Source: Candidatus Lustribacter sp.
Lineage (GTDB): Bacteria; Vulcanimicrobiota; Vulcanimicrobiia; Vulcanimicrobiales; Vulcanimicrobiaceae
Length of the DNA stretch: 64,000 nucleotides
NCBI GenBank assembly: GCA_965277805.1
Contig: OZ255842.1
Span: 2,048,001 to 2,112,000, forward strand
Direction of reading: 5' to 3'
Positions 5,647-60,886 of the stretch are shown piece after piece (position 1 is the first letter of the stretch; each line of letters starts with the position of its first letter). The position numbers and the translations under genes are program-made. The notes beneath the pieces are model-generated. The model did no database searches and had not been told where the DNA came from. It saw only the letters and a program-made list of their open reading frames with translations.

Positions 5647-6645
5647 TCAAGAACCCCTGGCCGCGGCCGGGAGCTTCAACATCCGCTCGGCATTGCGGTG
5701 GGCGATATCTTCTCTTTCTGATTCGCCGACGGGTAGCGTATCGAGAAAGTCGCGCGCCGCGCGATTGGTCGCGAATGGGTAGTCGACCGAGAAGAGAAGC
5801 CGATCCGTTCCGAACGTGAGCAAGGCCCCCATGAACGGCGGCAGGGTAAAGAAGCCGCTGGTCGTGACCGCGACCTGATCTAGAATCGTCTCGCCTACCG
5901 TGCGTTGCAAACCGGTATTGACGTGCGCAAACGCCTCATCGCTGCGCGCGAGCATGATTTGCAAACCTTCACCCATGTGGCCGATAATGAGCCGCAACTT
6001 TGGATGACGATCGAGCGCGCCGGAAAGCACCAGGCGCAAGACGTGCACCGCGGTATCAGCGTGCCATCCCCAGGCGGCGTTCGCGAACATGTACGACACT
6101 GCCGGATCGAAGCCGTCATAGTATCCGCGCCGCACGCTTGCCGGCGGAACTCCCGGATGCAGATAGAGCGCCACGCCGAGGGCTTCTGCGCGCTCCAGCA
6201 CGGGATCGAACATCGGGTGATCGAGAAATTTTTCGTCGGTGTGGCCGCTGATCATGGCGCCGCAAAAACCGTATTGCTGCACCGTGCGCTCGAGTTCGCC
6301 GGCCGCTGCTTCCGGCGCCGTCAACGGCAGATGTGCGAATGCCGCAAAGCGGTCTGGGTGCCGCTGCACCCTGGCAGCCAATTCATCGTTGTAACGGCGG
6401 GCAAAAGCGGGACCGGCGTCCGCCGGCAATAAGTCCGCTCCGGCACCAATGACGGAAAGAACTTGGACGTCGATGCCCGCCTCATCCATCAAACGAAGCC
6501 GCTTCTCATCCACCTCATCGAGATCGTCCGTGCGCGATTCGGGACCCAGAGCGGGGGCCATGCCGCGCCGCAGCTTCAGCCCCGGATCGATCTCGCTCGC
6601 AAAGCGCCGAAAAGAAACGTGCTCCTCGAGTGCGATAATGCGCAC
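5647..6645 (-). CDS. Amidohydrolase_2 family, aromatic acid decarboxylase-like
   Basis: IALEEH, YLHPG, GHMGE, FSVDYPF motifs (LigW/gamma-resorcylate decarboxylase-like). Confidence 0.88.
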   Translation of the reverse strand: MRIIALEEHVSFRRFASEIDPGLKLRRGMAPALGPESRTDDLDEVDEKRLRLMDEAGIDVQVLSVIGAGADLLPADAGPAFARRYNDELAARVQRHPDRFAAFAHLPLTAPEAAAGELERTVQQYGFCGAMISGHTDEKFLDHPMFDPVLERAEALGVALYLHPGVPPASVRRGYYDGFDPAVSYMFANAAWGWHADTAVHVLRLVLSGALDRHPKLRLIIGHMGEGLQIMLARSDEAFAHVNTGLQRTVGETILDQVAVTTSGFFTLPPFMGALLTFGTDRLLFSVDYPFATNRAARDFLDTLPVGESEREDIAHRNAERMLKLPAAARGS

Positions 6646-45600: not shown

Positions 45601-46809
45601 TTAATCCGTGCCGGTAATCGGCAGCAGGCCTTCGGGTCGAACGAACGACCGCAGCGGACGCCCTTCCGCCAGGGCCTTGAGCTCCGTGCTCCACAGCTTA
45701 CGCATCGCGATGATAGCGACGTCGGAACGTCCGAGGTGCTCGACGCCTTTGCGCCGGTCAGCGATGCGCCCCTGACCGGTTTGACAGACGTCGTCTTGCG
45801 CCATCGCAACATGGTGACAGAGCTGCGCCATGTCGTCGTAGCCGATGTCGCCGCGCAACACGGCCTGAGCTGCGACATGCGCCTCTTCCTCCGCGTTCGC
45901 AAACTGTTTCCAGCGCTCGGCGTATGCCGGATCGACCGTATCGCCATGAAGATGAACATTAATGAGACGCAATTCGAGGGTGCTTTCGTCGTCGATCGGC
46001 ACGCGATAGGCTAGGAAATCTTGCCAGGCAACCTCCGCCCGGTTCACTTTCTCCTCACCAGGCTTTTGAATATTGTCGGGATGGACAGTGAAGAGGCCGA
46101 TATTCGGCATGCCGAAAAGCACCTCGCGTTTGTGGCCATGGCGCGTGGCGATGCATTTCATGCCCCACGGGGTTTCCTCGGCCGCGATCTCGGGCAGCTG
46201 ATCGAAGTAGACTTTGGTGAACACCGATGTCCGGTGCGTGAACGCGAGATGGCCCTCGTCCATGAAGTTTTCCACGCACTGAAAGAAATTGCAAGCGCGC
46301 ACGCTCATGAGCGGCATGACGAGCTTTCCCCGCTCCCATTCGGGATACCGCGGAAACTCGGGCGGGTCGCCGCCGCCGAAGTACGCATAGATCAAACCGA
46401 GGTAATCGCGCGCGGGATAGCCGCCGATCTTGACGCGCTGCGCGTAGGTGCTGTCGGGCCCCTCGAGCGGCTGCTCGACGCATTGACCGTTCGCTTCGAA
46501 TTTCCAGCCATGGTACGGACATCGAATGCAGTCGCCTTCCACCCAGCCGGCGTTGAGTTGCGTTCCACGATGCGCGCAGGCTTGGTCGACACAGTGAATG
46601 TCGCCCGACTCGCCGCGGTAGAGCGCGTAGTTCTCACCCATGATGCGCAACGGACGCGCGCGCCCGGGCGCTACGCTCTCACTCAAAGCCACCGGATGCC
46701 AGAACGTGCGCATGTAGCGTCCCGCGATCGTACCGGGGCCGGTGTGGGCGAAATCGACGCCCTCGCCGGCGTCATTTACGGAGGCAGTTCCGGAGAGAGT
46801 GGTCGTCAT
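45601..46809 (-). CDS. Rieske oxygenase alpha subunit, phthalate 4,5-dioxygenase/LigX type
   Basis: TGPGT..GRYMRTFWHP, CAHR...CPYHGW, ENFMDEGHLAFTH, HLGRSD. Confidence 0.9.
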   Translation of the reverse strand: MTTTLSGTASVNDAGEGVDFAHTGPGTIAGRYMRTFWHPVALSESVAPGRARPLRIMGENYALYRGESGDIHCVDQACAHRGTQLNAGWVEGDCIRCPYHGWKFEANGQCVEQPLEGPDSTYAQRVKIGGYPARDYLGLIYAYFGGGDPPEFPRYPEWERGKLVMPLMSVRACNFFQCVENFMDEGHLAFTHRTSVFTKVYFDQLPEIAAEETPWGMKCIATRHGHKREVLFGMPNIGLFTVHPDNIQKPGEEKVNRAEVAWQDFLAYRVPIDDESTLELRLINVHLHGDTVDPAYAERWKQFANAEEEAHVAAQAVLRGDIGYDDMAQLCHHVAMAQDDVCQTGQGRIADRRKGVEHLGRSDVAIIAMRKLWSTELKALAEGRPLRSFVRPEGLLPITGTD

Positions 46810-47810
46810 GAATACTCCTTACTTCGCGATTGAGCCAACGCGGCGCGTGCGATCTCTTCGTCTTCTTCGGCCGAGCGCGCTCCGGCGATCCCGAGCGCTC
46901 CCGCGACGCAACCAATTGCGTCAATGGTCGGCAGACCACCGGCAACGGCTAGAAAGGGAAAGCGAGCGAGACGCCCATACCCGGCTGCGTCCGCCGTCCA
47001 TGGACCTTCCGCGCCGCTGGGCGCTTGCAGGTTCACCGCTGTTGCCGCTTTGGCTTCTGCCAGATCCACCGTGATCGGCGCGGCGGAATCCATCCGGTCG
47101 AGCTGCACCAGATCGCCGTTACGGTCCGCGACCGCAGCACTGATGCGAACGCCTCGGCGCTGCGCTTCCGAAAACGCGGCGTCGACGACGGCCAGTGCCC
47201 AGGTCAGACGCTGCTGCTCGCGCGCCGGCGGCGGAGCGCTCAGACCCGTTCCGGAAGGCAGTGGATCGTACCGATTACCGTACGCCTTGCGCCAGCGCTC
47301 GAGATCGTCGCCGTGCTGTGGCGCATAATGATCCAGGCCGATCGCGTAGGAGATGATGAGGTCGATTGCATTCGCGGGCCGGCCTTCGACCAGAAACTTC
47401 TCCGGATCGACGCCGGGGGAACTGACCTCGGGCGGGATATCCGCTGCGGACGACATCGCTCCCACGTGCGCACCGTTGCGCGTGATCGGCATCGCGCCCG
47501 GTCCGGGGAAGCAGCGGTCGCGCAAGATGTCTTGATAGGCGGCGAAAACGCTCGGCGGCCGGCCGTAGATCCGTGCGGCGAAGCGGGCCGATGTTTCGCG
47601 GTTGGCCGCCGCCTCGTACGCCTTCGCGCGCGAGATGCCCATGCTGATCGATCCGGCGCCATCCATCCGCGACGCCGAAATGACGATGCCGCCCTCGTTG
47701 ACCACGACGAATGCGCCGCGCTGTCCGACGTCCTCGGCCTTGTCGACGGCACGCCGGAGCAGTTCACGCGCGTCGGCGAGCGAGAGCAGTGGAGCTTCGA
47801 ACCCCGTCAT
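46806..47810 (-). CDS. Tandem GlcG/HbpS (heme-binding, DUF336) domain protein
   Basis: Two copies of RMD.A.....A.AKA..A plus GG.P....G...GA.G..G; ATGA coupling on both sides. Confidence 0.82.
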   Translation of the reverse strand: MTGFEAPLLSLADARELLRRAVDKAEDVGQRGAFVVVNEGGIVISASRMDGAGSISMGISRAKAYEAAANRETSARFAARIYGRPPSVFAAYQDILRDRCFPGPGAMPITRNGAHVGAMSSAADIPPEVSSPGVDPEKFLVEGRPANAIDLIISYAIGLDHYAPQHGDDLERWRKAYGNRYDPLPSGTGLSAPPPAREQQRLTWALAVVDAAFSEAQRRGVRISAAVADRNGDLVQLDRMDSAAPITVDLAEAKAATAVNLQAPSGAEGPWTADAAGYGRLARFPFLAVAGGLPTIDAIGCVAGALGIAGARSAEEDEEIARAALAQSRSKEYS

Positions 47811-48412
47811 ACAAACGAACACGAGTCTTGGAATTCCAACCGAGGTAGCCGTCCGAACAACATATCCGGGTTACCGAATCCGACCGAACACAAGAAGTTC
47901 GAGCGATACGACGTGCCGGCCAAGAATGCTCGGTCGACGGCCTCGTGGTCGAATCCCGAGAGCGGCCCGCAATCGAGCCCCAGCGCACGCGCAGCGACGA
48001 TGAAATATGCACCCTGCAGGGTGGAATTGCGAAATGCCGTCGCTTCCGCGTACCCAGTGTCGTCCGCGTAATGGCCGCGCATGTCTTTGTGTGGAAAGAG
48101 CCGCGGCAGATGGTCGAAGAATCGCTCGTCGTAGGCGACGATCGCCGTTACAGGGGCGGACAGCACTTTCGGCTTGTTACCGGGGCTGACAGCCTCGGCC
48201 AGTTGCGCCTTCGCTTGAGCACTGCGCACAAAGATGAAGCGCGCCGGCTGCGAGTTCGTACTCGTGGGTCCGAGCTGGGCCAACCCGATCACCGCTCGGA
48301 GCAGCGCCTCGTCGACCTCCTTCGGCAACCAGCCGTTGTGGCTGCGCGCGGCCCGGAAGATCAAATCGAGACCCTGGTCGTCCAGGGCCCGACGATCGCA
48401 TTCGATATCCAT
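47807..48412 (-). CDS. RutE/HadB-type nitroreductase-family flavoprotein
   Basis: ARSHNGW, GPTSTNSQPARF, RNSTLQGAY, GLDCGPLSGFD, RLPRL. Confidence 0.9.
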   Translation of the reverse strand: MDIECDRRALDDQGLDLIFRAARSHNGWLPKEVDEALLRAVIGLAQLGPTSTNSQPARFIFVRSAQAKAQLAEAVSPGNKPKVLSAPVTAIVAYDERFFDHLPRLFPHKDMRGHYADDTGYAEATAFRNSTLQGAYFIVAARALGLDCGPLSGFDHEAVDRAFLAGTSYRSNFLCSVGFGNPDMLFGRLPRLEFQDSCSFV

Positions 48413-48436
48413 TAGCGCCTTCGCAGGTTCCTTTGT

Positions 48437-48471
48437 TTGAAGAATTTGTCTTTCAAGAATGTGTGTTTGAA
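48437..48471. promoter_or_regulatory. Probable MarR operator array
   Basis: TTGAA (48437) / TTCAA (48452) / TTGAA (48467) at exact 15-bp spacing in the divergent intergenic region. Confidence 0.55.
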
Positions 48472-48525
48472 GGTACTATGCATCTCGCGAGCCGAAACGT
48501 CAACCCTTCTCTAGGGGGTTATGCA

Positions 48526-49110
48526 GTGAAACCGCGGGACCACATCGACCTTGTGCGTAGGGCGGCGGGCATGCCGTCGTCCGACACGACGACGGTCGAA
48601 ATTACCAGCCGCCTTTTCCGGTTGTGCGCGCACTACGATCAACTCGTGTCGCCGCTCTACGCACGCCGCGGGCTGACGCGCGTCGAGCTGGATCTGCTTT
48701 GGGCGCTCGAACGCGCAGGCGATACGCCGCTGACGCCGACCAAGCTGGCGGCGCGGCAAATGTGCGCCTCGGGCACCCTCAGCAATCGCCTCGAAAAATT
48801 GGAGCGGCTGGGCCTGCTCACGCGTCAGGCGGATCCATCCGACCGGCGCGGCGTCCTGCTTGAGATCACCGAGCACGGCCGCACGATCGTCAACGAACTC
48901 AACGCGGCGCGCGAACGTATCGATGCACTTCTAATCCCCGGCCTGACCGTCGCGCAACGGCGCGCATTGGTGGACCTGCTGCGGACATCGCTCATTGCGG
49001 CCGAACAGATCGCGCAGCTGGAAACGGCGAGCGAGACGCCACCGTCCTCCGATGAAGAATCATCTGCACCGCAGCCAGCGCCGCTGCGCCGGACGCGTGC
49101 GGCCCGCTAA
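48526..49110 (+). CDS. MarR-family regulator
   Basis: LTPTKLA...SGTLSNRLEKLERLGLLTR..DPSDRRGVLLEITEHG; AGGGGG SD before GTG. Confidence 0.9.
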   Translation: MKPRDHIDLVRRAAGMPSSDTTTVEITSRLFRLCAHYDQLVSPLYARRGLTRVELDLLWALERAGDTPLTPTKLAARQMCASGTLSNRLEKLERLGLLTRQADPSDRRGVLLEITEHGRTIVNELNAARERIDALLIPGLTVAQRRALVDLLRTSLIAAEQIAQLETASETPPSSDEESSAPQPAPLRRTRAAR

Positions 49111-49143
49111 CATTTCTGCAAACCGCTGTAAGGAAAGGCCCTG

Positions 49144-49527
49144 ATGCAGGTTACCAAAGACGATGTCATGCAAGCCAGCAAAGGCATGCTACAGAAGCAA
49201 TTCTACGTCGTGTTCAGTACGCCGACGAATGGGATTGGTCCCGTGATGGAAAACCTCGAGGCACACCTCGCGCACCAATGCAAGATCGAGGCGGACGGAA
49301 TCATGGTGGCGGCCGGCCCGTACTGGACCGATGACGAGAAGCAATGGGAAGGCGAGGGCATGTTCGTCATTCGTGCGCGATCCCTCGCGCATGCGAAGGA
49401 ACTTGCGGCGAGCGACCCGATGCACAAATGCGGAGCGCGGTCGTTCGTCGTCCGGCCATGGATGGTGAATGAAGGCGGCCTCACTATCCGGCTCACGTTC
49501 TCGGACGGGAAATTCGTTCTTGAGTAA
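49144..49527 (+). CDS. YciI-family protein (copy 1)
   Basis: AHLAHQ, AAGP, GMFVIRA, DPMH...RPW. Confidence 0.85.
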   Translation: MQVTKDDVMQASKGMLQKQFYVVFSTPTNGIGPVMENLEAHLAHQCKIEADGIMVAAGPYWTDDEKQWEGEGMFVIRARSLAHAKELAASDPMHKCGARSFVVRPWMVNEGGLTIRLTFSDGKFVLE

Positions 49528-49573
49528 CGACGTTCCTGAACGGTCTTCTCGCAGCGCCTCGGAGTTCTACTGA

Positions 49574-50764
49574 ATGCCGTCACTAGCGAAGCTCTCGGAG
49601 TCCACTCGCAACTCCGTTTTGACCCTGCCGGTCGACCTCCACGAGTCGAGCCCGTTCACGCGGCCCAAGAAGCCACTCAGCCAATCGCGGGTCGCGATCG
49701 TCACGACGGCCGGATTACACCGCCGCGACGACCGGCCGTTTACCGGCGGGGATCCGACCTTCCGAGCCATACCCTCAGGAACGCCGGCGTCAGAGATCGT
49801 GCAAAGCCACACCAGCATCGGGTTCGACCGGACCGCCGTGCTCGAGGACATCAACGTCGTTTTTCCGATCGAGCGGTTGCGCGAGATGCTTTCGGCGGGT
49901 CGCATCGGGGAGTTGGCGCCGACCTTCTATTCGTTCATGGGCGCGCAGCGTGACTGGTCACCGATCAGGGAGCGAACGGGACCCGAAGTTGCGAACCTGT
50001 TGGTCGGCGATGGTGTCGACGTCGTCTTACTTACACCAACTTGACCACTTTGCACGAACACGGTCAGTGTTCTCTCACGGGTCTTGGAAGAAAACGGGCT
50101 CACGACGGTCGCTTTGAGTCTGATCCGCGAACACACGGAAAAAGTGAAGCCTCCGCGCGCCGTGTACGTTCCCTTTCCGTTGGGTCTGCCGGTCGGTCAT
50201 CCCGGAAACGTTTCCGAACAGGAGGCCGTCTTGGACTTGGCATTTTCCACTCTCGATGCCGCCAGCGGCCCCGTGCTGCTCGACTATCGCGATGACTCGG
50301 CAGCCGAGGAGGCCGGCTCGCCGCTTCAGGCCTCCGACGTCGATGCGGACGAGCAGGCTCGGACGGCTGACTTCGCTACGGAAGTGACGTTGATGCGGCG
50401 CTATTGGGAGCAGCACGTCGCGGCGACCGGCCGCACCGGCGTCGGCTTATCGAACGTCCCGCCGCAGCGGTTCCGCGGCGTCGTGCGGTTTCTCGAAGCT
50501 CTTCTCACCGATCAAACGGCCGACTCGGACGAACGGCCGGCGGAGGTGCCGAGACCGCTGTTCATCCGGACGTGCCTCGAGGACCTACGCGTGATGTACA
50601 GTGAAGCGCGCTTGCAAACGCATCCACATGAGTCAAGTCAAGACCGGCAACGTTGGTTGCTCGGCTCGACCGCGCTCGGGCTCATGCTGCGCAGCCTGCG
50701 CGATACCTTCGACGCCTCGACCGATCCGCAGTTCAAAGCGCTCGCCTTCGGTATCGCGCGCTGA
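49574..50764 (+). CDS. PrdB/GrdB-family selenoprotein (396 aa, Sec157, UxxC) with a C-terminal extension
   Basis: Two same-frame ORFs joined by TGA 50042-50044: VLLTPT-U-PLCTNTVSVLSRVLEENGLTT; family motifs on both sides (KPLSQSRVAIVTTAG, DINVVFPIERL; KPPRAVYVPFPLG); the in-window paralog has Cys here. Confidence 0.85.
50045..50072 (+). promoter_or_regulatory. Candidate bacterial SECIS element
   Basis: Stem GAACAC/GTGTTC (50056-61/50067-72) with GGTCA loop starting 17 nt after the UGA. Confidence 0.65.
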
Positions 50765-50768
50765 TTCG

Positions 50769-51152
50769 ATGGAAGAACAGGAGCGGTTCTCATCCTTACA
50801 CACATGGGCACGGCGCGCGGGAGACGTCGTGACGGTCGGTATCAGCGCCTACGCCGAACATCAATTGGGTGAGCTGCAATACGTCGGTCTACCGCGCGTC
50901 GGCTCTGCCGTTGTGAAAGACCAGTGCTTCGGTGAGGCTGAATCGACGAAGACCGTTTCCGACCTCTACGCTCCGTGCAGCGGCACCGTCGTTGCGGTCA
51001 ACTCCGAACTCATTGCCGATCCTGCGCTGGTCAATCGCGATCCGTATGGCGCGGGGTGGATAATACTGGTTGAGCCGTCGCAGCCCGGGGAATTCCACGA
51101 ATTGCTCGACCAGCCGGCGTACGACGCGTTCGTCGCCACGCAGGAGCATTGA
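50769..51152 (+). CDS. gcvH: Glycine-cleavage H-protein-like lipoyl carrier
   Basis: HTWAR, VGISAYA..QLG, lipoyl-Lys motif ESTKTVSDLYAP, VNRDPYGAGW. Confidence 0.9.
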   Translation: MEEQERFSSLHTWARRAGDVVTVGISAYAEHQLGELQYVGLPRVGSAVVKDQCFGEAESTKTVSDLYAPCSGTVVAVNSELIADPALVNRDPYGAGWIILVEPSQPGEFHELLDQPAYDAFVATQEH

Positions 51153-51206
51153 GGCATCCAAGCTATGCTTTCAACCTAAGATGATAAGCGAGGGGGCTTG
51201 TACCAC

Positions 51207-51400
51207 GTGCTAAGATCCACATTCGTCTCTTCCAGTCTGAGCCTAACGGCAGCGGCGGAATTGCCGCTGCCGGTAGGCGCCCAATCTGTCGCGTTCGCTC
51301 CAGATGCCACCCGAAGCCGTCGGGCAGAGGTGGTTACGACAATGAACCTTGCGCGCCCGGGCGTTTCGCAGGCGTGGATCCCCTTGCCGTCAGTGAGCGC
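51207..51400 (+). pseudogene. Possible N-terminal remnant of a secreted (transglutaminase-like) protein
   Basis: Degenerate signal peptide, then EVVTT...SQAWIPLPSV, then no continuation. Confidence 0.3.
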
Positions 51401-51544
51401 CCTAGCCGTTCTTGATGTATCCTCAAGCCGTGAACGCGGGCATCGCCTGCGACTGCCTCGATCCAAAGGCTGTCGCTTATTCGATCACGGTAACGGCCTA
51501 GTTTCTCTCTTCGAAGGCGACGCGACGTTCCCGAGGTACTCAAC

Positions 51545-52516
51545 ATGTCCGCTGCAATCCATTCGCTCGATCACTTTAGCTTCGCCGTCCCTGACGTAGC
51601 CGCCGCGGCTGCGTTCTACGAACGCTTCGGCCTCGATGTCCGCTCGGAAGGTACGGGTTTCACGCTGCGCGCGAGCGGCAGCGATCACGTTTGGGGTCGC
51701 ATTTACGAAGGCCCGCGAAAAGCCATCGGTTACCTCTCGTTCGGCGCGTACGAGCACGATATGCCGCAACTGCGCAAGCAAGTCGCCGGATGCGGAGTGG
51801 CGTTACTGCCGGCTCCGAAACGTGCCGTCGACGATGGCGGGGTGTGGTTCGAGGATCCGGACGGGACACTAATAGAGATTCGCGTCGGTCCGAAGGTCTC
51901 GCCTGACGTAAAAGCTGCGCTGAGCGCGACGTTTGCCCCGCCCGATGTCGCTGGTGCGCCCATGCGCTCCGACGCCAAGACGGTGCGGCCCGACCGTCTT
52001 TCGCACGTGCTCGTGTTCACGAGCGATGTCTCGCGCGCGATCGACTTTTATCGCGAGACCGTTGGCATGCAGCTCTCCGATCGGGCTCGGGACGGCATCG
52101 GGTTCATGCACGGCGCACACGGCAGCGACCATCACCTCGTCGCATTCGCGAAATCTGACGCTCGCGGATTTCATCATTGCAGTTGGAACGTAGCTTCGGT
52201 GAGCGATGTCGGCCTAGGTGCGATGCAAATGGCCGATGCGGGATACACTCGCGGGTGGGGAATGGGGCGGCACGTACTCGGGTCAAACTATTTTGACTAC
52301 ATCCGCGACCCGTGGGGAAGCTACTCCGAATATTCCTACGATATCGATTTCGTCACTCCGGGAGCGGTTGCGAAAGGCACGTGGAAAGCGACCGACGCAT
52401 CGCCCGAAAATGGCTTCTACTTGTGGGGGCCGTTGCCACCTGACGATTTCGCCTTTAATTACGAGTCGCCGTCGGCCGAATTACAACGGGACCTCGTCGC
52501 AAGCGAACCGCGGTAA
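51545..52516 (+). CDS. Two-domain VOC extradiol dioxygenase-like protein
   Basis: C-domain ligands LSHVL, HHCSW, GRHVLGSNYFDYIRDPWGSYSEY; GAGG SD. Confidence 0.88.
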   Translation: MSAAIHSLDHFSFAVPDVAAAAAFYERFGLDVRSEGTGFTLRASGSDHVWGRIYEGPRKAIGYLSFGAYEHDMPQLRKQVAGCGVALLPAPKRAVDDGGVWFEDPDGTLIEIRVGPKVSPDVKAALSATFAPPDVAGAPMRSDAKTVRPDRLSHVLVFTSDVSRAIDFYRETVGMQLSDRARDGIGFMHGAHGSDHHLVAFAKSDARGFHHCSWNVASVSDVGLGAMQMADAGYTRGWGMGRHVLGSNYFDYIRDPWGSYSEYSYDIDFVTPGAVAKGTWKATDASPENGFYLWGPLPPDDFAFNYESPSAELQRDLVASEPR

Positions 52517-52734
52517 GCGTGCGTCAAAAATGTAACGATGCGGCGATTTAGCGGTGCCAGCAGAACAATGAGCGGAATCATCGCTAACCAGGCAAAGAGC
52601 CATGCGCGGACCCATAGCAAGAACGTTGACTGCAAATGCAATAAGAGTCCTGTTGCGATCGCGGCTGTGACCGCTGTTGTTGCGCCGGACTGAATGGTTC
52701 CAAAAAGTAAATCAGCGTAACGCTTGTTGATCAT
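52459..52734 (-). CDS. Small membrane protein, DUF2798-like
   Basis: Two hydrophobic helices; QSG.T...A...W..AWL.AW..M.P......AP..RR pattern. Confidence 0.6.
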   Translation of the reverse strand: MINKRYADLLFGTIQSGATTAVTAAIATGLLLHLQSTFLLWVRAWLFAWLAMIPLIVLLAPLNRRIVTFLTHAYRGSLATRSRCNSADGDS

Positions 52735-52790
52735 GCGCTCGTTCCAAGTCGCCAGCTGGCGTAAATTTTGTCTGCCCAATCGTACTGGCC

Positions 52791-53738
52791 TCAACCCGGA
52801 AAAATGAGCTCGGACGCTGGGAAGGCCGGAAATTTTTGGTACTTGGCGGCTAGATCGATCGACGGTTGAAGCTGCCCGGTCGCGAGCTTTTCGGCGAATG
52901 TCGCGCGGTGGACGTGGGCGACGAATTCCGGATCTTGCTTGAGCTTGCTGGCCACGATTGGTACGACTTTATCGGGATTTGCCTTCGCCCAGGCGGCCGA
53001 TTCGACCATGACGCGCGCAAATCGCGCGACGAGATCGGTATGCGCCTTCGCCCAGGTAGCTGTCGCGCACCATGCCGTTACTAGGTAGGGCGGTGCGAGA
53101 ACTTCGTCTCCTGACGTGAGCAACTTCGCTTGCCCCTTCTGGATTGCGATCGTGAAGAATGGCTCATTGAGCCACCCCGCATCGGCGCGTCCCGCAGCAA
53201 GGGTATCACCAATTGCGGGAAACGGGACCTCGAGAAACTTGATCGTGGCCGAATCACCGCCATTCTTGTCCATCCAAGCTCGCGGTATGAACTCGGCTAG
53301 CGATCCGAGTCCCGGAATCGCGATCGTCTTGCCCTGGAGGTCTCCTGGGCCCTTGATCGCCGAGTTCGGTGGCACGACGATCCCGCCCTGAACGAGGCCC
53401 TTTTCGACATCTCCTTGCGGCCCGACGATCACGAACGGCAGTCCCTTGGCATGGGCCAGTGCAAGATTCGTGATCGTCGCGTTCCCGATGTCGAACGTTC
53501 CAGCGAGTATCGCCGGCAAGATAGCCGCTCCGGTTGATAGCTGACCTATCTCCGCGCTGATCCCGGCCTTCGCAAAAAAGCCGTTCGCCTCGGCGTAATA
53601 CGGCTGGCACCCGGGCTCGATCGGGACAACTGCGACCTTCACCAACGGAAGGTCGACGGCGCGAGCGACGCCCCTGACACTTGGAAGAGCGAACGCTCCG
53701 GCTATAGCTTGTGCGGCTCGGTGGCGGGTGATGTTCAC
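52791..53738 (-). CDS. ABC solute-binding protein, NMT1/SsuA type
   Basis: YYAEANGFFAKAGI, DLQGKTIA, WMDKNGGD, NEPF. Confidence 0.88.
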   Translation of the reverse strand: MNITRHRAAQAIAGAFALPSVRGVARAVDLPLVKVAVVPIEPGCQPYYAEANGFFAKAGISAEIGQLSTGAAILPAILAGTFDIGNATITNLALAHAKGLPFVIVGPQGDVEKGLVQGGIVVPPNSAIKGPGDLQGKTIAIPGLGSLAEFIPRAWMDKNGGDSATIKFLEVPFPAIGDTLAAGRADAGWLNEPFFTIAIQKGQAKLLTSGDEVLAPPYLVTAWCATATWAKAHTDLVARFARVMVESAAWAKANPDKVVPIVASKLKQDPEFVAHVHRATFAEKLATGQLQPSIDLAAKYQKFPAFPASELIFPG

Positions 53739-54634
53739 GGTGTGAATGCGCTCGGAAAGATATGAAGCATGACGATTTTCCGAGCGGCTTCAGAACTTCT
53801 TTGGTAGCACGTCTGCAGCGTTACTTTCATGCCGTCACCTTTGGCGTTGCAACATGAGGCTTGGCTAAGATAATTGCCCGGACCGTTCACTGTTGGAGAA
53901 AGTACCATCCGCGCGTTTGTAGCATAGGAATCTCGACAATATGAAGTGGAGTGGAAGTCCTAGTAGTCCCACTACCCCTCGCATAAGCCAGCTTGATCGC
54001 GCAACGTCAGCACGATGCGTTGAGCGCTCGGGCTCACATTCAGTCGGATGGGATGATCGTCGAGTGGGTGGCGACGGCTGCGCAGGTGACCGACGGACGG
54101 CGGCCGTTGCGGTCGCGTCGCGCGGACGTGCGCGCGAAGGGATGCAGGACGGCCTGTGCTTAAAGCGCGCTCGAAGGTCGAACTATTCCAGCTCGCGCAG
54201 TGTTGCCACGAACGCTTGAGCCGCTTGCAGAGTCATACCATGAAGCATCAGAATGACGACATTCAGTTCATCGTCTTGCACCGAAGACGCATGTGCGATG
54301 TTCTCTGAGCCGCCCATAATGTTGCCAAGAGCCCGCCCAAATGCAGAGCTCCAACCATTGTTGATTGCGGTTTGGCGGACTAGCCGCTTATACCATTTAA
54401 GCATGGAGGCCGCGCAGGACCAGTCCGAACAGTCGCTGCGTTTTAACTTGAGTCAAGATTTACGCCTTTGCGCGATGTTGCGCGACTACTTCGCTTGGGA
54501 ACGAATCGAACCTCGGTCTGCCTCACCAACACGGTGAGGTTTCGCCTCGGGCCGTGGCGCTAAATTCAAGAACAGCGTGACTACTCCGGATCCACGCTCA
54601 TCACGGGCAATGCGGTCCGAAATGGCGCGATGCC

Positions 54635-55492
54635 CTAATCGCCTTCTGACACTTCCCCGCGACGATCGCGAAGCCGCACTAGTCGCTGAAGCGCGCTGCT
54701 GCTTTCCTCATCAACGGGCGTCTGCAGGAACACCATGACCCCCGGAAGTGCGGGCGGCTCCAGCGTCATGGACCTCACCGCGATCGGTCCGGCGGCCGTT
54801 TCGAAAGTGATCGGCGTCGCCGGACCACGGCCCACGATCTTTTCCGACCACGCGCGCGTGAAGTCGGGTGAATCGGCGAGCGCGTCTAGCAGCTCGTCGA
54901 TACGCGCATCCGCACCGTGACGCGCGTACAATGAGCGAAAGATGGCCACCGGACCGAGCGACATCTCGTCCCAGCTCCGCACGATATGGCGGAGCGCCGG
55001 ATCCTTGAACATGCGCCAGATGTGATTGTTGGCTTTCCAATCGGTTGCGTCGCTGAACTCGTAGAGGGCCGCCGTGCGCCGATTCCAGGCAAGGTGATCC
55101 ATGCGGGCGTTGACCGCGAACGCGCTGCCGGTGAACGCGTGCAGCATCGCCTGGACATCGGCCGGAACCGCGGTGACCAGCTCGCCCCACGGCACGATCT
55201 GCCGTTCGGCCAGGCCGAAGACATAGCCCGACTCTTCCGGCGAAAGGCGCAGCACGCGAGAAATCCGCGTAAGGACTTCGGACGAGGGGCGTACTGGGCG
55301 CCCTTGCTCGAGCCAGGTGTACCAAACGACGCCAATGTGCGCCAGGCTGGCCACCTCCTCGCGACGCAAGCCACGCGCGATCCGGCGCGCACCTCGCTCT
55401 AAGCCGGCAGCCTCTGGCGCGATCGCCTGGCGCCGCGAGCGCAAGAACATGCCGAGCTCTTTGCGACGTGCGGCCGGGTCATCAGAATTCAT
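54635..55492 (-). CDS. XRE-family (HTH_31 + MmyB ligand-binding) regulator
   Basis: RRKELGMFLRSRR, GLRREEVASLA.IGVVWYTWLEQGR...PS, AWN. Confidence 0.92.
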   Translation of the reverse strand: MNSDDPAARRKELGMFLRSRRQAIAPEAAGLERGARRIARGLRREEVASLAHIGVVWYTWLEQGRPVRPSSEVLTRISRVLRLSPEESGYVFGLAERQIVPWGELVTAVPADVQAMLHAFTGSAFAVNARMDHLAWNRRTAALYEFSDATDWKANNHIWRMFKDPALRHIVRSWDEMSLGPVAIFRSLYARHGADARIDELLDALADSPDFTRAWSEKIVGRGPATPITFETAAGPIAVRSMTLEPPALPGVMVFLQTPVDEESSSALQRLVRLRDRRGEVSEGD

Positions 55493-55506
55493 GACAGCTC
55501 TTTGAG

Positions 55507-55529
55507 GAGTACTCGCAGTACTAGTACTG
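55507..55529. promoter_or_regulatory. Probable operator of the XRE/MmyB regulator
   Basis: Perfect palindrome CAGTACTAGTACTG (55516-55529) plus GAGTACTC (55507-55514) between divergent genes. Confidence 0.6.
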
Positions 55530-55599
55530 TTTCTTGCCTTTGTGGCGGCCGCACTCCTGTGCTACAAAGCCTCGGACGGTACTTGCGGGGGATGCGCTC

Positions 55600-56607
55600 A
55601 TGACTGATTCCGGCACATTTTCGCTTGCCAAAGCCCGCGCATTGCTTTCGCGCGCCGTAGCAAAATGCGAGGCCTTTGGGCAATCCGGCACCTTCGTCGT
55701 CGTCGACGCCTCGGGCGCTCCGGTGAGCGTGGCGCGTATGGACGGCTGCGCCCCCTCGGCGCTGCCGCTGGTTCGTGCGAAGGCGTTCGCCACCGCCGCG
55801 AACGGCGAGCCGAGCGCGCTCTTCGCCGCACGCATGGAGAAGTTCGGTCCCCACACGTTTGCGAGCTATCAGGCCGTTCTGCGCGACCAGCCGTTTCCGG
55901 GCGCCGGCGGTGTACCGGTGCGGGAGAACGGGAGGATCGTCGGAGCGATTGCGACCGGCCTGCGCATCGGGCCGTTCGTCAAGTTGCCCGGCATCTCGCC
56001 GTCGCAACTGATCGCCGACGGCAAGCCGGGCAATCTCGAGGATACGATCATCAGCTACGCGCTCGGCGTACCGTACAATCCGCAGCACGGCGATGACGCT
56101 GCGCGCTGGACCGAAGCCTATGGCGCGCCGCCGGACCCGGCGGAAAAAGGAACGGCCATGGACCCGGTTCCGGAAGCGAGCGCGCAACCCGAACTCGCGC
56201 GCGCGCGCGCAATTGCCGATCGCGTGATCGCGCGCGCCACGGAAAAGGGCGCGCGCGTGGCCGTTGCGGTTGTCGATGCGGCCGGCGATGCCGTCACGCT
56301 CGATCGCATGGACGGCGCGCCGCCGATGGGGGTCGACGTCGCCGCAGCCACCGCGACCGCCGCCGTCAATTTTGGCATGGCGTCGGGGGCGATCGCAGCC
56401 GACCGCCACTATTCGAGCGTTCTCGACAGCGTGCTCACAACCGTCCCATACCGGATGCTGACGTTGCCCGGCGGATGTCCGATTCGCAGCGGAACGGCGG
56501 TGCTCGCTGCCATCGGTGTGTATTGTCATGATCTCGACCTCGCCGCCGAGCTTGCGCAGAGTGCGGCGGATTGGGTCTTACCGCAATTCGAAGGAAGTGG
56601 TCAATGA
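55600..56607 (+). CDS. Tandem GlcG/HbpS domain protein (paralog of 46806..47810)
   Basis: RMDGC..AKAFATA and RMDGAPP; shared IISYA.G..Y.PQHGDD..RW..AYG linker. Confidence 0.82.
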   Translation: MTDSGTFSLAKARALLSRAVAKCEAFGQSGTFVVVDASGAPVSVARMDGCAPSALPLVRAKAFATAANGEPSALFAARMEKFGPHTFASYQAVLRDQPFPGAGGVPVRENGRIVGAIATGLRIGPFVKLPGISPSQLIADGKPGNLEDTIISYALGVPYNPQHGDDAARWTEAYGAPPDPAEKGTAMDPVPEASAQPELARARAIADRVIARATEKGARVAVAVVDAAGDAVTLDRMDGAPPMGVDVAAATATAAVNFGMASGAIAADRHYSSVLDSVLTTVPYRMLTLPGGCPIRSGTAVLAAIGVYCHDLDLAAELAQSAADWVLPQFEGSGQ

Positions 56608-57809
56608 TAGAACAGGATCGCATCGACATCGACATCGCTCCGCTCACCGATCCTGGCACGGTCGACTATGTCCACACCGGCCCCGGCACCTTGGCCGGCA
56701 CCTACTTACGGCGCTTTTGGCACCCCGTCTATTGCAGCCGTAACCTCGAGCCCGGCTTCGCTAAGCCGCTGACGATCATGAGCCAGAAATTGGCGCTGTA
56801 CCGCAGCCAGGAAGGCCAGGTCCACTGCGTCGACAACCGCTGTGCGCATCGCGGCGCGATGCTCAGCACGGGCTGGGTCGAGGGCGACGTCATCCGCTGC
56901 CCCTATCATGGCTGGGCGTACGGGGCCGATGGCAGGTGCGTGGAGCAGCCGATGGAACGAGCGACATTCGCCAAGCATATTCGCATCGGCGGCTACCCGA
57001 CGCAAGAATATCTCGGCTTCATCTGGCTCTATCTCGGCAACGGCGAACCGCCCCCGTTTATACGCTATCCCGAATGGGAGAATGCGCCCTTCGTTTCCGC
57101 TCAGATCGACACGCGGCCATGCAATTGGTTTCAGAACATCGAGAACTATCAAGACGAAGCTCACGTTTGGTTCACGCACAAGCGCTCCGCGCTCGAAGGC
57201 CTCGATCTGAACCATCTGCCGCAGCTCTCGTGTGAGAAAACGCCCTGGGGCTTGCGTATGATCGCAAAGAAACAGGACGGCAACGACCGCATCGTGCAGT
57301 TCGGTATGCCCAACATCTGCATGTTCGCCGTGCATCCGGACAACATTAAACGCCAGGGCGAAGAACGCAACGCCGACGAGACAGCGTGGCAGATGTTCCT
57401 CGACTACCGGGTGCCGGTGGACGATTTCTCGCATCTGCAAGTGCACTGTATCGCGACGTTCATGAACGGGACGCCCAGCGAAGAGTACAAGAAGCGCTGG
57501 AAAGACTTCGCGAACGCCGAAGCCGAGGCCCACGAGGTCGCGCAGAAAGTGCTGCGCGGCGAACTCCAGTACGATAGGATCGCCGAAATATGCCACCACG
57601 TGCCACTTGCGCAAGACGAAGTTGTGCAAGTGGGCCAGGGCGTCATTGCGGATCGCCGGCGCGGCATCGAAAATCTGGGCTCGACGGACGTCGGCGTCGT
57701 CGCGATCCGGCGACTGTATACGCAGGAGCTCACGGCGCTGGCCGAAGGCCGGCCGCTCGGGAATTTCGAGCGGCCGGAGGGACTGTTGCCCAAAGGCGGC
57801 GGCGACTAA
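56604..57809 (+). CDS. Rieske oxygenase alpha subunit (paralog of 45601..46809)
   Basis: HTGPGTLAG.YLRRFWHP, CAHR...CPYHGW, ENYQDEAHVWFTH; shared FGMPNI..F.VHPDNI and CHHV..AQD. Confidence 0.9.
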   Translation: MIEQDRIDIDIAPLTDPGTVDYVHTGPGTLAGTYLRRFWHPVYCSRNLEPGFAKPLTIMSQKLALYRSQEGQVHCVDNRCAHRGAMLSTGWVEGDVIRCPYHGWAYGADGRCVEQPMERATFAKHIRIGGYPTQEYLGFIWLYLGNGEPPPFIRYPEWENAPFVSAQIDTRPCNWFQNIENYQDEAHVWFTHKRSALEGLDLNHLPQLSCEKTPWGLRMIAKKQDGNDRIVQFGMPNICMFAVHPDNIKRQGEERNADETAWQMFLDYRVPVDDFSHLQVHCIATFMNGTPSEEYKKRWKDFANAEAEAHEVAQKVLRGELQYDRIAEICHHVPLAQDEVVQVGQGVIADRRRGIENLGSTDVGVVAIRRLYTQELTALAEGRPLGNFERPEGLLPKGGGD

Positions 57810-58192
57810 TGCCGGTTTCCAAAGAGGACATCCTTGAAGCCGGTAAAGGCATGCTGCAAAAGCAGTATTACGTCGTCTTCAGCACGCCGACGAACGGTAT
57901 CGGTCCCGTGATGGAAAATCTCGAGGCGCACCTCGCGCATCAATGTAAGATCGAGGCCGACGGCATTATGGTGGCGGCCGGACCGCACTGGACGGATGAC
58001 GAGACGCAGTGGGAGGGCGACGGGATGTTCGTCATCCGCGCACGGGACCTCGTGCACGCAAAGGAGCTTGCGGCGAGCGATCCGATGCACAAATGCGGAG
58101 CGCGGTCGTTCAAAGTCCGCCCGTGGCTGGTGTGCGAAGGCGGCTTTACCATACGGATCACGTTTTCGGACGGCAAATTCGCACTCGAGTAA
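57809..58192 (+). CDS. YciI-family protein (copy 2)
   Basis: 108/127 aa identical to 49144..49527 by manual alignment; TAATG coupling. Confidence 0.88.
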   Translation: MPVSKEDILEAGKGMLQKQYYVVFSTPTNGIGPVMENLEAHLAHQCKIEADGIMVAAGPHWTDDETQWEGDGMFVIRARDLVHAKELAASDPMHKCGARSFKVRPWLVCEGGFTIRITFSDGKFALE

Positions 58193-58223
58193 CGTCGCGC
58201 TCATCGGCGGAAAGTGAAGGCTC

Positions 58224-58577
58224 ATGCTCTACCTCAGAATGTGTTTTGACAGTCCCGGTAAGGAACAGCTCCGCGATGCCACGCGGTCGGAGCACCGCGC
58301 CTACCTCGTCCCATTTCTGGCCCCCGGCGGGGACGTCCACATCGTTCAGGCCGGTCCCATGTGCGGCAGCGATGAGAGCGATCAGAACGTGGGCAGCTTT
58401 TTCGTCGTCGAAGCCACGTCGATAAAGGCGGTCGAGGCCTTTCACGCCGGCGATCCGTTCACGCAAAAAGGCGTGTTCGGAAACGCGACGGTCGTGCGGT
58501 GGGATCGGCACATCGACAGTAGCAGCGAATCGCACGCGACGTTCGCCGCACAAAACGCCCGGCCGGCTGTCGGATAA
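58224..58577 (+). CDS. YciI-family protein, canonical type
   Basis: D.PG..QLR..TR.EHRAYL, AGP, GSFFVVEA, DPFT..GVF. Confidence 0.85.
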   Translation: MLYLRMCFDSPGKEQLRDATRSEHRAYLVPFLAPGGDVHIVQAGPMCGSDESDQNVGSFFVVEATSIKAVEAFHAGDPFTQKGVFGNATVVRWDRHIDSSSESHATFAAQNARPAVG

Positions 58578-58579
58578 CG

Positions 58580-59458
58580 ATGCCGTACAGCTTCTCCCGC
58601 TTTCTGGCCGAACTGGGGCGATCGATTCCGATGCCCGAATTCGATCCGCCCACGCTCGTGCCGTTGCGCAAGCCCATCGCCGAGTCGACAATCGGGATGT
58701 TCGTCAGCTGCGGCGCGCAACTGCCCGAAGACCCGCCGCTGCTCGAGACGGAAGACATCACGTTCCGGTTGTTGCCACGCGACGTCCCGACCGATCGACT
58801 AGTCATTTCGCATCAAACGCTGGTACGGAAGTGGGCGGTAGAAGACCTGAACGTCGCATACCCGATCGACCGCATGAAGGAGCTGGAACGTGAGGGAACG
58901 TTCAAGCGGCTCGCGCACACAAACGTCTCAATGGTCGGTTCGATCGAGCGCTATACCGAATTGATGGAACAGACAGTGCCGCGGATGAAGGCCGTCTTTG
59001 ACTCGCAAGGTGTCGACCTCGTCTTGTTGCTGCCGTTCTGCCCCGCATGTCATCGGGCGACGGGCCTCGTCGCTCGGGCGTTGGAGGCCCGCGGGCTGCC
59101 GACCATTAGCACGAGCGTGCTGTGGGAAATGAGCGCTGCCGTCAAGCCGCCGCGCACGTGCTTCCTAGATTTTCCGCTAGGTTGCCCGGCCGGCAAGCCG
59201 CACGAAGTAGCGCAGCAGCGCGACATTCTCCGTCAAACGCTGCAACTCGCACCGGAGTTCGACGCCGACAGCTGGGCGATGAAGTCGCTGCCGTTTCAAT
59301 GGGATGCCGACGGAAGTCGCGACTGGGAGCGCGCGACAGAAGACCTCTACCGAAACGGTGGAATCAAGATTACCGATCGGCACATGGCGGCGCACGCAAA
59401 CGTCGGCGAGTCGTTACTTGGCAACGAGCGCGCCTTCGCAGTCAAATGTAACTGTTAA
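58580..59458 (+). CDS. PrdB/GrdB-family Cys homolog (CxxC) with a C-terminal CxC
   Basis: KPIAESTIG, EDLNVAYPIDRM, VLLLPFCPACHRATGLVARALEARGLPT, KPPR...DFPLG; ends KCNC-stop. Confidence 0.85.
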   Translation: MPYSFSRFLAELGRSIPMPEFDPPTLVPLRKPIAESTIGMFVSCGAQLPEDPPLLETEDITFRLLPRDVPTDRLVISHQTLVRKWAVEDLNVAYPIDRMKELEREGTFKRLAHTNVSMVGSIERYTELMEQTVPRMKAVFDSQGVDLVLLLPFCPACHRATGLVARALEARGLPTISTSVLWEMSAAVKPPRTCFLDFPLGCPAGKPHEVAQQRDILRQTLQLAPEFDADSWAMKSLPFQWDADGSRDWERATEDLYRNGGIKITDRHMAAHANVGESLLGNERAFAVKCNC

Positions 59459-60003
59459 TACGAACGGCCTATGTACCGTGCGCCATGCGCGAGCAGGCAT
59501 GTTAAAGTGATTCTTGCTTCGCACACCCGATCCACTTTAGCCACTGCGTGCTATGTGCGTCAGGTCATTGCTGGCGCTTGGCCGGTGTTCTGCGTGATGG
59601 GCTTACAACTGCGCACTCGAAAGGGTTACTTCTCTTTCGACGGATAGTGGACCGGGTCCAGAATTGCCCGGTCCGGTGCGCCACCTGCGGCAAACAACGG
59701 AAAATGAACCGAACAGTACTCGACGGTCAGCGCTTCAGAATCGCTTCCACAAGCGCTGCAACCGCAAGGCCACCAATGCGTACTAACGAGTCGACGGTTC
59801 GAATCGAAATCGACTGTTGTGGAAACGTGTCCGGACAAAGCCAGCCTAAGAATATGTAAGCCCTTCGTCATCTGCCAGCCCTCCCGCCGATGTGACGACG
59901 TTCCACTTGGTGGAGAGAAAACACGATTCCTAGCGGTGGTCCGGGCGGCGACCGGTCGGACACATTTCGATCTTGGCGAACCGGCACACGACAATCGTAT
60001 CTA

Positions 60004-60311
60004 CTAGTGAACCAGTTTTAGGATCGGGCCAGGAACGGACGCCATATAACGCCAGCCAACCTTCTCGACCATGCTCTCGATCGTGAACGGCTTTTCGAGC
60101 GGCTGCATGACCAACGTGGAAAGCCCGGGCTGGGTGATCCGGAGATGAGCATGGCCGCGCGCACTCCGCTGCGAAACATGGCAACGGCGACGAGCCGGGC
60201 GCTTTCGGTGGCCTCCTGAGCCGACGTTCCCAGCGAGCAGATGCGTGGCTCCGTACTCGTCGCAACAAAGCGTTCCCCGCGCGGTGCGACAATCAAATGA
60301 AGCGAGTCCAT
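60004..60311 (-). CDS. Hypothetical protein with an apparent 1-nt frameshift near 60143; weakly HicB-like N-terminus
   Basis: GGAGG upstream; MDSLHLIVAPRGERFVAT...GTSAQEATESAR...AMLI joins LRITQPGL...LEKPF in the next frame. Confidence 0.35.
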
Positions 60312-60451
60312 GTGCTGCACACACCTCCGAGCAACGAACGAAAAGATGGGGGGACTCATCCTAGCAGGCGGAGCGACTGCCTGTCCGTACGACAGCGCGC
60401 CCTAGACTGTGTGTCTACTTGACAAGCAACACTCTCGACGATGCGCCACAA

Positions 60452-60886
60452 TTAATCCCCGCTATGTAGTTTAATAGCGGCAGACCGCCAACGTTGCAAG
60501 CGGATCGGAAGCACGGCGGTTACTTCGCATCTCAGGGGGTTGGCGACAACGTCGAGATTGCGGGCGAGTTGGTTCACGATGTACAAGCCTCGGCCGCCTT
60601 GAGCGTAGAGTGGTTGAGGACGGAGAGTCGAGAGATCGAAACAATCGCCGTCGTCGGTGACGCGCAGCGTCGCCCATTCATCCTCGATCAACTCGACCTT
60701 CACGCTCGTTCGCGCGCACTTCACCGCGTTCGCAACGAGTTCACCAAAAATCAACGCGCCATCGTAGCGGGCTAGTTCGCCGGTGGGATTCGTTTTCACC
60801 ATGCGTGAGAACTCGTGCCGAGCTGAAACGGCCCCTCTGAGATCGCCGCCCTTGATCCACCATTCCCGTGCCGTCCGTTTCGTCAC
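60452..60886 (-). CDS. RsbW-like HATPase_c (anti-sigma factor) protein
   Basis: GELVANAVK, LRVTDDG, GGRGLYIVNQLA; GAGG SD. Confidence 0.85.
   Translation of the reverse strand: MTKRTAREWWIKGGDLRGAVSARHEFSRMVKTNPTGELARYDGALIFGELVANAVKCARTSVKVELIEDEWATLRVTDDGDCFDLSTLRPQPLYAQGGRGLYIVNQLARNLDVVANPLRCEVTAVLPIRLQRWRSAAIKLHSGD

Follow-up and report, generated by a model that had tools for sequence, protein, structure and literature searches.

A subfamily of stand-alone PrdB-like reductases with an invariant C-terminal C-x-C, and its representative beside a long-type selenoprotein paralog in Candidatus Lustribacter

What is a small thiol reductase to do with two cysteines at its very C-terminus? The question is raised by a stretch of 64,000 nucleotides (nt) from Candidatus Lustribacter sp. 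(contig OZ255842.1, positions 2,048,001 to 2,112,000 of the forward strand; this whole stretch is the window, and positions are counted from its first letter), which carries two genes related to PrdB of D-proline reductase and GrdB of glycine reductase. One, the Cys paralog, has cysteine (Cys) at the first position of its active site and closes with Cys-Asn-Cys; the other, the Sec paralog, has selenocysteine (Sec, U) there. An earlier note, made from the letters of the window and a list of its open reading frames (ORFs), had taken the two as alternative ways of recycling the same active site, by a CxC arm in cis or by a lipoyl arm in trans carried on the H protein GcvH, with the Cys gene as a possible selenium-independent backup. 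The comparative analysis presented here indicates that the tail belongs to a whole subfamily, in which it accompanies Sec as well as Cys.

The Cys paralog lies on the + strand at 58580..59458, with an ATG start, 292 amino acids and a TAA stop at 59456-59458, and the anatomy that the earlier note gave for it, namely CPAC, an additional LGCP cysteine and an AVKCNC-stop end, is correct. The active-site motif CPAC (59039..59050, +) comprises amino acids 154-157, with C154 and C157 carried in the segment ...LLLPFCPACHRATG..., matches UPLC of the Sec paralog in the alignment and precedes an invariant H158. LGCP (59177..59188, +), which supplies C202 in the segment ...LDFPLGCPAGKPH..., is part of a family-wide FPLGxPxGxP loop. 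Next comes a subfamily-specific C-terminal extension of about amino acids 246-289 (59315..59446, +), with helices at 248-275 and 283-286, and then the terminal C290-N291-C292 (59447..59455, +), the last residues of ...FAVKCNC. The match to the PrdB model TIGR04483, which spans amino acids 17-242 and stops before the extension, scores 134.4 bits (4.2e-39), below the cutoff of 300; the cutoff of 22 bits for Pfam GRDB (PF07355) is passed at 22.4 bits by a partial match to amino acids 69-126. Since the N-terminal MPYSFS... is kept in relatives, the ATG at 58580, not the internal Met18, is the likely start. A number of database entries of 274-275 amino acids (P0005-P0009, P0031 and P0072) begin at the internal Met (MPEFDPP..., corresponding to 58631 as against 58580), and because the upstream segment is kept these short starts are probably mis-called. 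The Cys paralog belongs to a distinct subfamily of stand-alone PrdB/GrdB-like thiol reductases, about 292-306 amino acids in length, whose signature as read from sequence is a (U/C)-P-x-C-H centre, a helical extension of ~50 residues and an invariant C-x-C-COOH; the Cys paralog has all three.

The constancy of the terminal pair is the central observation. A search for close homologs gave 311 proteins at E<=0.001, and the best 120 of these, 66-100% identical to the query, end in C-x-C without exception (119 in CNC, 1 in CDC). An exhaustive search of representatives returned 1052 proteins at E<=0.001; among the best 150 the end is present in 17, including 13 of the 13 whose match reaches query residue 292, and those of full length that bear the tail share 38-51% identity with the Cys paralog, their middle tail residue being variable (N, A, V, T or S). 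Finally, a genome collection was scanned with a four-sequence alignment, which yielded at least 601 stretches, at least 536 of them confirmed relatives; of these, the 80 most similar to the Cys paralog were analysed as genomic loci. The tail is encoded at all 24 loci of the CxC subfamily (L003-L026), 22 of which are intact. L015 (about 6849-6880) and L025 (about 6120-6600) are frameshifted, with ...RCNC-stop still encoded in the shifted frame; these two acidobacterial copies, from metagenome-assembled genomes (MAGs), represent either assembly indels or pseudogenes. Only U/C154, C157, H158, C290 and C292 are universal among the tail-family sequences (27/27). C202 is found in 25 of the 27 (P0124 and P0125 are without it), C44 and C194 vary across the subfamily and are invariant in close relatives only, and the segment G-x-E-[RK]-x-F directly before the tail is highly conserved. 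The earlier note had named a terminal CxC that close homologs do not keep as the outcome that would speak against its proposal; the pair is kept, in every one of the 120 listed close homologs and at every tail locus. In the sequences compared, the terminal CxC is an invariant feature of the subfamily, beyond what chance would give and no accident of the Cys paralog.

Is the tail a companion of the Cys form, as the earlier note had it? The 80 loci fall into several types. Besides the 24 of the CxC-tail type (14 Cys and 8 Sec among the intact genes) there are 24 of a long type with UPxCT, about 385-412 amino acids in length (one of ~581), which is the type of the Sec paralog and in which 22 loci have Sec, 2 have Cys and none has a cysteine in the last 15 residues; these long-type loci were chosen by likeness to the Cys paralog and are not centred on the Sec paralog. 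A CPxCH type without the CxC tail accounts for 19 loci (16 Sec, 3 Cys; 12 of them with a length of 286-302 amino acids), and a short CN type, Sec throughout, for 13, two with a C-terminal CxxC (L046, L071). In the 22 intact tail genes the active-site codon is TGT or TGC in 14 and TGA in 8 (L005, L018-L023 and L026). These eight have in common an 8-bp hairpin, AUCGGUCC-GUG-GGACUGAU, which lies 13 nt past the UGA and resembles a selenocysteine insertion sequence (SECIS); it is degraded in the Cys tail genes, that of the window included. The tail is consequently not tied to the Cys form.

A maximum-likelihood tree was built from the 22 intact tail genes, the window protein and 4 outgroup rows, the frameshifted L015 and L025 being left out. 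In it the Sec forms are basal and paraphyletic and the Cys forms make up three derived groups, so that at least three changes of state are needed: the Vulcanimicrobiota, in which the window protein joins L003 and L004 (support 100/99), an acidobacterial clade of 11 rows (support 100/99), and the long-branched L024. As the outgroup supplies the root and the midpoint serves for the drawing, the direction from Sec to Cys is likely, not proven; the Cys form of the window likely descends from Sec ancestors, its SECIS hairpin having been lost. Because the same tail is present in Sec and Cys forms and the Cys forms are derived, the tail is older than the replacement of Sec by Cys and independent of it. 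It is therefore probably a property of the subfamily, compensating neither for Cys in place of Sec nor for a missing neighbouring GcvH.

Two observations on the wider family may be added. A second stand-alone subfamily (UPVCHQ, about 286-302 amino acids) is marked by a TPQYQ..ED segment conserved in 12 loci; in 9 of the 12 a CxxC lies 4-12 residues from the C-terminus (L027-L030, L037, L041, L048, L069 and L070), and the Entotheonella-type loci L033-L035 of this subfamily are without it. In addition, 14 of the best 150 representatives stop one residue before the active-site position, in ...PF, ...PL or ...PT (P0136, P0151, P0155, P0172, P0226, P0252, P0253, P0255, P0259, P0260, P0262, P0266, P0268 and P0269), and C-terminal fragments such as P0134 and P0227 begin right after it. 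Gene callers cut Sec genes at the UGA, and protein databases thus under-represent the Sec forms, so that censuses made from predicted proteins mislead. From a plasmid collection came nothing beyond canonical prdB and a pair of alphaproteobacterial PrdB-like genes; the neighbours were uninformative, none of them annotated as gcvH. A protein atlas gave GRDB-family clusters only, no structure search being made there.

The AlphaFold2 model of the Cys paralog is of high confidence (mean predicted local distance difference test, pLDDT, 94.6; predicted template modelling score, pTM, 0.93), apart from residues 290-292, with pLDDT <50, and a weaker block at 281-290 (70). The tail follows the two helices of the extension, which are absent from canonical PrdB (237 amino acids, with the end PLPIEY and no terminal Cys). 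A sequence search of the PDB at E<=1 produced 6 matches, of which the lowest (4.1e-4) concerns short repeats in a protein designed de novo and the others have E>=0.2, and no fold match was obtained at E<=0.001, the best template modelling (TM) score being ~0.3; with no solved relative by sequence or fold, the fold is not anchored to a solved enzyme. As a homodimer the protein scores 0.76, against 0.01 for the best control, with agreement between runs on 100% of contacts and a partner pLDDT of >=92. Among solved proteins, 20 of 30 one-chain pairs attain this mark, as does 1 of 23 single chains; these counts are rough, the analysis having used its own alignment. These values support a predicted homodimer; the model shows no binding as such. 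The confident interface consists of residues 48-68, 110-114 and 132-144, that is, of the helix 125-142 and the strands around 48-68 and 110-114.

The Sec paralog (49574..50764, +) encodes a long-type PrdB-like selenoprotein of 396 amino acids, with U157 specified by a single in-frame TGA at 50042-50044 (TUPLC). A SECIS-like 6-bp hairpin, GAACAC-GGUCA-GUGUUC (50056..50072, +), lies 14 nt past the UGA. TGA stands at the same aligned codon in 22 of the 24 long-type loci, and the Sec-type long relatives have a similar hairpin, of the CACAC-GGUCG-GUGUG type, ~14 nt downstream (L040-L082), which is missing in the two Cys-type long relatives, L054 and L075. It is a well-supported selenoprotein gene; the window contains no tRNA gene, hence no tRNA-Sec. 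Its own scores are 146.8 bits against TIGR04483, again below the cutoff of 300, and 42.9 bits against Pfam GRDB. With CPAC aligned to UPLC, the two paralogs are 35% identical over 190 residues, and they differ in length (292 vs. 396 amino acids) and in the active site (CPxCH vs. UPxCT). The Sec paralog has no Cys at the positions of C44, C194 and C202 (Leu at that of C202) and none in its last 15 residues. Paralogs so distant and so different in length belong to different subfamilies, and the Cys copy is therefore no backup of the Sec copy. The two genes encode different enzymes, and Sec together with the same tail is found among orthologs of the Cys gene, so the selenium-independent backup proposed earlier is not supported.

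In P0274, a database protein of 438 amino acids, MarR domains are joined to a stretch that has 57% identity to the Sec paralog's C-terminal half; the ORF may have been mis-called. Three proteins longer than 396 amino acids match that C-terminal half, and none of the three is a GcvH fusion, which is weak evidence; Pfam analysis of 8 long representatives revealed fusions with helix-turn-helix (HTH) and AMP-binding domains only.

The sole gcvH of the window (50769..51152, +), encoding the lipoyl carrier H protein, is well supported (Pfam GCV_H 1.1e-34; NCBIfam PRK01202 134 bits, cutoff 117) and starts 4 nt after the stop of the Sec paralog. The earlier note was right that the Sec paralog is without a tail and has GcvH next door and that no gcvH follows the Cys paralog: a tblastn search with the GcvH of the window found no second copy in it, and nothing GcvH-like after the Cys paralog. 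The anticorrelation that it expected between a terminal CxC and a neighbouring gcvH is not visible in the wider sample. No gcvH stands beside any of the 80 related loci (tblastn, E<=1e-4, flanks up to 6 kb on each side; at least 1 kb of downstream sequence at 74 of the 80), the best chance match having E = 0.62, as against E = 1e-85 for the positive control within the window. This includes all 24 long-type loci (for 22 of them the downstream sequence runs to at least 1 kb) and also L068, from a Candidatus Lustribacter MAG, which is the closest relative of the Sec paralog among the best 80 of the 536 (57% identity) and has an AraC-type regulator upstream of it and, on the other strand, a gene for an NAD(P)HX dehydratase downstream. 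Adjacency to gcvH has so far been seen only in this window, and since gcvH accompanies neither type outside it, the expected anticorrelation is empty.

What, then, might the tail do? Because it is invariant, ends a subfamily-specific extension and has its last three residues modelled with pLDDT <50, a redox arm acting in cis is reasonable; this part of the earlier proposal stands, and the contrast that it drew with the Sec paralog and its gcvH does not. Our preferred reading, to which we give a probability of roughly 0.5, is that the CxC recycles the U/CxxC centre as a flexible shuttle dithiol. Turnover would leave residues 154 and 157 joined as a selenenylsulfide or disulfide; C290 and C292, as a mobile dithiol at the terminus, would attack this bond and take the disulfide over; and a diffusible reductant of the cell would finally return the tail to its dithiol form. 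What we infer in this scheme is that the tail is redox-active and reaches the active site, along with the nature of its reductant and of the substrate. Several points weigh against it. Canonical PrdB functions without any tail. There are tail-less relatives at 39-42% identity (P0131, P0132), and one fragment, P0192, extends to residue 287 and has a different end. The confident homodimer interface names neither the tail nor CPAC nor C202, unnamed residues being merely uncertain, and the predicted dimer would lend no support to a swing between subunits, speaking neither for it nor against it. Moreover, the four invariant cysteines of CxxC and CxC could equally form a metal site.

Hsp33 makes a zinc centre from a CxC and a CxxC, and MerA has metal-handling cysteines at its C-terminus. 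A metal site formed by the CxxC of 154-157 and the terminal CxC (Zn(Cys)4, Fe, or a soft metal or metalloid), with a tail that is structural, regulatory or metal-handling and no shuttle at all, would agree with a universal residue set of exactly these four cysteines and H158, C44 and C194 being variable, and with the placing of the tail at the extreme terminus, as in MerA. We nevertheless consider it, the main rival of the shuttle, unlikely, since Sec in a third of the members (position 154 in 8 of the 22 intact ones, with dedicated SECIS hairpins) is easier to reconcile with a redox centre in catalysis than with a metal site of structural role. The last three residues, too, are modelled as disordered, no metal-related genes recur in the flanks of the sampled loci, and the UxxC described as the catalytic redox centre of the PrdB/GrdB superfamily, in the parts of the two papers available (PMC13188914, PMC1088965), fits a structural ligand poorly. 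Another use for a terminal and, in the model, mobile pair preceded by the conserved G-x-E-[RK]-x-F would be docking or handover, through a mixed disulfide with a partner or by carrying off a covalent intermediate, much as in glycine reductase, where protein B passes the carboxymethyl group on to selenoprotein A; there the separate CxxU protein GrdA interacts with the motif of GrdB (PMC13188914, available portion). Such a role would lead one to expect a partner, but there is no conserved partner gene across lineages, the only recurrent neighbour being an Amidohydro_2 gene at 15 of the 24 tail loci, and no relative of PrdA, PrdC, GrdA, GrdC or GrdE was detected among the ORFs scanned with Pfam in the window and at the loci (neighbours of 13 related loci). 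We hold a docking site to be very improbable.

The model of the earlier note, in which a cis tail and a trans lipoyl-GcvH restore active sites of one kind, with the Cys gene as the selenium-independent backup, draws on the window itself: its only gcvH stands immediately behind a paralog without terminal cysteines, and both paralogs lie directly behind YCII genes (85% amino-acid identity) and near paralogs of a Rieske gene (55%) and of a double HbpS-like gene (47%). Beyond the window, cysteines are lacking from the last 15 residues at all 24 long-type loci. With a YCII gene directly before each PrdB-like gene, the two types occupy equivalent cassette places, one gene having a tail and the other a gcvH, which is suggestive as support for this model and is a single case. 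Against it are the absence of gcvH from all 80 related loci, L068 included, the co-occurrence of tail and Sec in 8 of 22 genes, the membership of the two paralogs in different subfamilies and, as weak evidence, the want of a GcvH fusion among the three longer proteins, and we judge it quite unlikely. A broader formulation would be that electrons enter stand-alone PrdB-like selenoproteins via interchangeable modules, with shuttle cysteines of their own at the C-terminus in two subfamilies (C-x-C-COOH in one, CxxC near the end in the other) and a separate carrier in the long type, here lipoyl-GcvH. This is a long shot. Were it true, the two duplicated YCII/Rieske/HbpS-like cassettes of the window would each display one of the solutions, and GcvH would be the first lipoyl protein to serve a selenoenzyme as reductant; the GcvH link, if real, would be new biochemistry, and its base is one genome.

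The two paralogous cassettes extend over 45601-51152 and 55534-59458, and each has a PrdB-like gene of a different subfamily. In the second, an apparent operon begins with a double HbpS/GlcG-like gene (55534..56607, +; Pfam HbpS-like in 2 stretches) and continues with a Rieske non-haem oxygenase (56571..57809, +; Pfam Rieske 1.8e-23), a YCII-domain gene (57809..58192, +; Pfam YCII) and another YCII-domain gene (58224..58577, +; Pfam YCII 1.3e-13) whose stop is 2 nt before the ATG of the Cys paralog, the last gene; a divergent MmyB-type regulator lies upstream. The first has its double HbpS-like gene (46806-47819) and its Rieske gene (45601-46806) on the - strand and, directly upstream of the Sec paralog, a YCII-domain gene on the + strand (49144..49527; Pfam YCII 8.1e-08). 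The YCII gene at 57809..58192 is a recent duplicate of the latter: the copies have 83% nucleotide identity over 392 nt (49141-49532 vs. 57806-58197), which looks like recent duplication or gene conversion confined to that gene. A promoter and terminator scan of 48300-60500 gave nothing useful. YCII, HbpS-like, MmyB and extradiol dioxygenase genes are beside none of the 80 loci (E<=0.05), and a single Rieske gene was found, in L005.

The window as a whole reads as an aromatic-catabolism island. Its remaining genes (101-48409, 51545-53738) include two VanA-type Rieske demethylases, five Amidohydro_2 genes, a hydroxylase with molybdenum cofactor (MoCo), flavin adenine dinucleotide (FAD) monooxygenases, extradiol dioxygenases, FAA hydrolases, an HpcH aldolase, coenzyme A (CoA) transferases, a nitroreductase and about ten solute-binding proteins. 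An Amidohydro_2 gene recurs in the fetched flanks of the tail loci (L003, L006, L007, L010, L011, L014, L016-L019 and L021-L025), often as the next gene, as against 1 of the 56 other PrdB-like loci; several phyla are represented, the acidobacterial loci being close kin. The encoded enzyme is a possible functional partner of the CxC-tail protein. Cupin, FAA hydrolase, LigXa-like Rieske, MoCo hydroxylase and glutathione S-transferase (GST) genes also occur near tail-family loci, and the gene context points to a role in the catabolism of aromatic compounds. In the acidobacterial clade (L006-L017) the gene directly upstream, ~600-750 nt before the tail gene on the + strand, encodes an exported protein of ~190-222 amino acids with a C-terminal CYSCH haem-binding motif and a weak match to cytochrome c'; downstream are Amidohydro_2, a dihaem cytochrome c and a pyrroloquinoline quinone (PQQ) dehydrogenase.

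How does the CxC subfamily compare with systems already known? By sequence it shares the core fold family of PrdB (TIGR04483) and GRDB (PF07355), as the match of the Cys paralog over amino acids 17-242 indicates, and has a U/CxxC at the same position, CPAC corresponding through that match to UGTC of canonical PrdB and followed, as there, by His (AGUGTCHRS); the conserved PPR...FPLGxPxGxP loop is likewise common to both. It differs in falling far below the PrdB cutoff (134 vs. 300 bits), in length (292 vs. 237 amino acids), in the helical extension and in the CxC end. In D-proline reductase, PrdB requires the pyruvoyl proprotein PrdA (PMC13188914, in the portion available), and among the ORFs scanned here there is neither a PrdA/GrdE pyruvoyl partner nor PrdC or GrdA. 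Its hosts differ as well: the CxC subfamily occurs in Vulcanimicrobiota and Acidobacteriota, next to genes of aromatic catabolism, and not in Stickland fermenters.

An environmental selenoprotein family with a UxxC motif was already known (PMC1088965, PMC2398784, PMC13188914, PMC1794560, each in its available part). The Sargasso Sea and Global Ocean Sampling (GOS) surveys describe a stand-alone 'proline reductase PrdB' family, a UxxC selenoprotein with Cys homologs, abundant outside clostridia and among the most abundant environmental selenoprotein families (PMC1088965, PMC2398784); the Sec paralog of the window and most of the 80 loci are of the same kind. The available parts of the surveys give the family and its UxxC, split off no CxC-ending subfamily and describe no C-terminal pair of cysteines; literature term searches found no description of a CxC-tail subfamily or of a link to GcvH, and the supplements of the surveys could list such subgroups. 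What the present analysis adds is a sharply defined subfamily that can be recognised by its last three residues and has a likely built-in redox arm, a set of clean natural replacements of Sec by Cys with loss of the SECIS, and a recurrent context of Amidohydro_2 and aromatic-catabolism genes.

C-terminal redox arms occur in the large thioredoxin reductase (GCUG), in MerA (CC) and in class I ribonucleotide reductase. Each of these enzymes, as would be the case here, relies on a dithiol or selenolthiol at the chain end to move electrons or a ligand between the buried centre and an outside partner; their folds are unrelated to that of the Cys paralog, and the function of the arm, which has been shown experimentally there, is in the present case one that we infer. 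A further parallel is offered by the ERV/ALR sulfhydryl oxidases, in which, according to the part of the source available, the shuttle cysteines are variable (CXC, CX3C or CX4C, N- or C-terminal), Erv2 of yeast having its CXC at the C-terminus (PMC4019985). These enzymes differ in having an unrelated fold and in their FAD, which has no counterpart here; the electron flow would in our case be reductive, and there is no sign here of a tail that crosses between subunits. They are nonetheless homodimers, as the Cys paralog is predicted to be, with a pair of cysteines on a flexible terminal segment beside a CxxC centre, corresponding to the invariant pair of low modelled confidence described above, and with a tail motif that varies from subfamily to subfamily, just as CxC and CxxC tails do among the stand-alone PrdB-like proteins.

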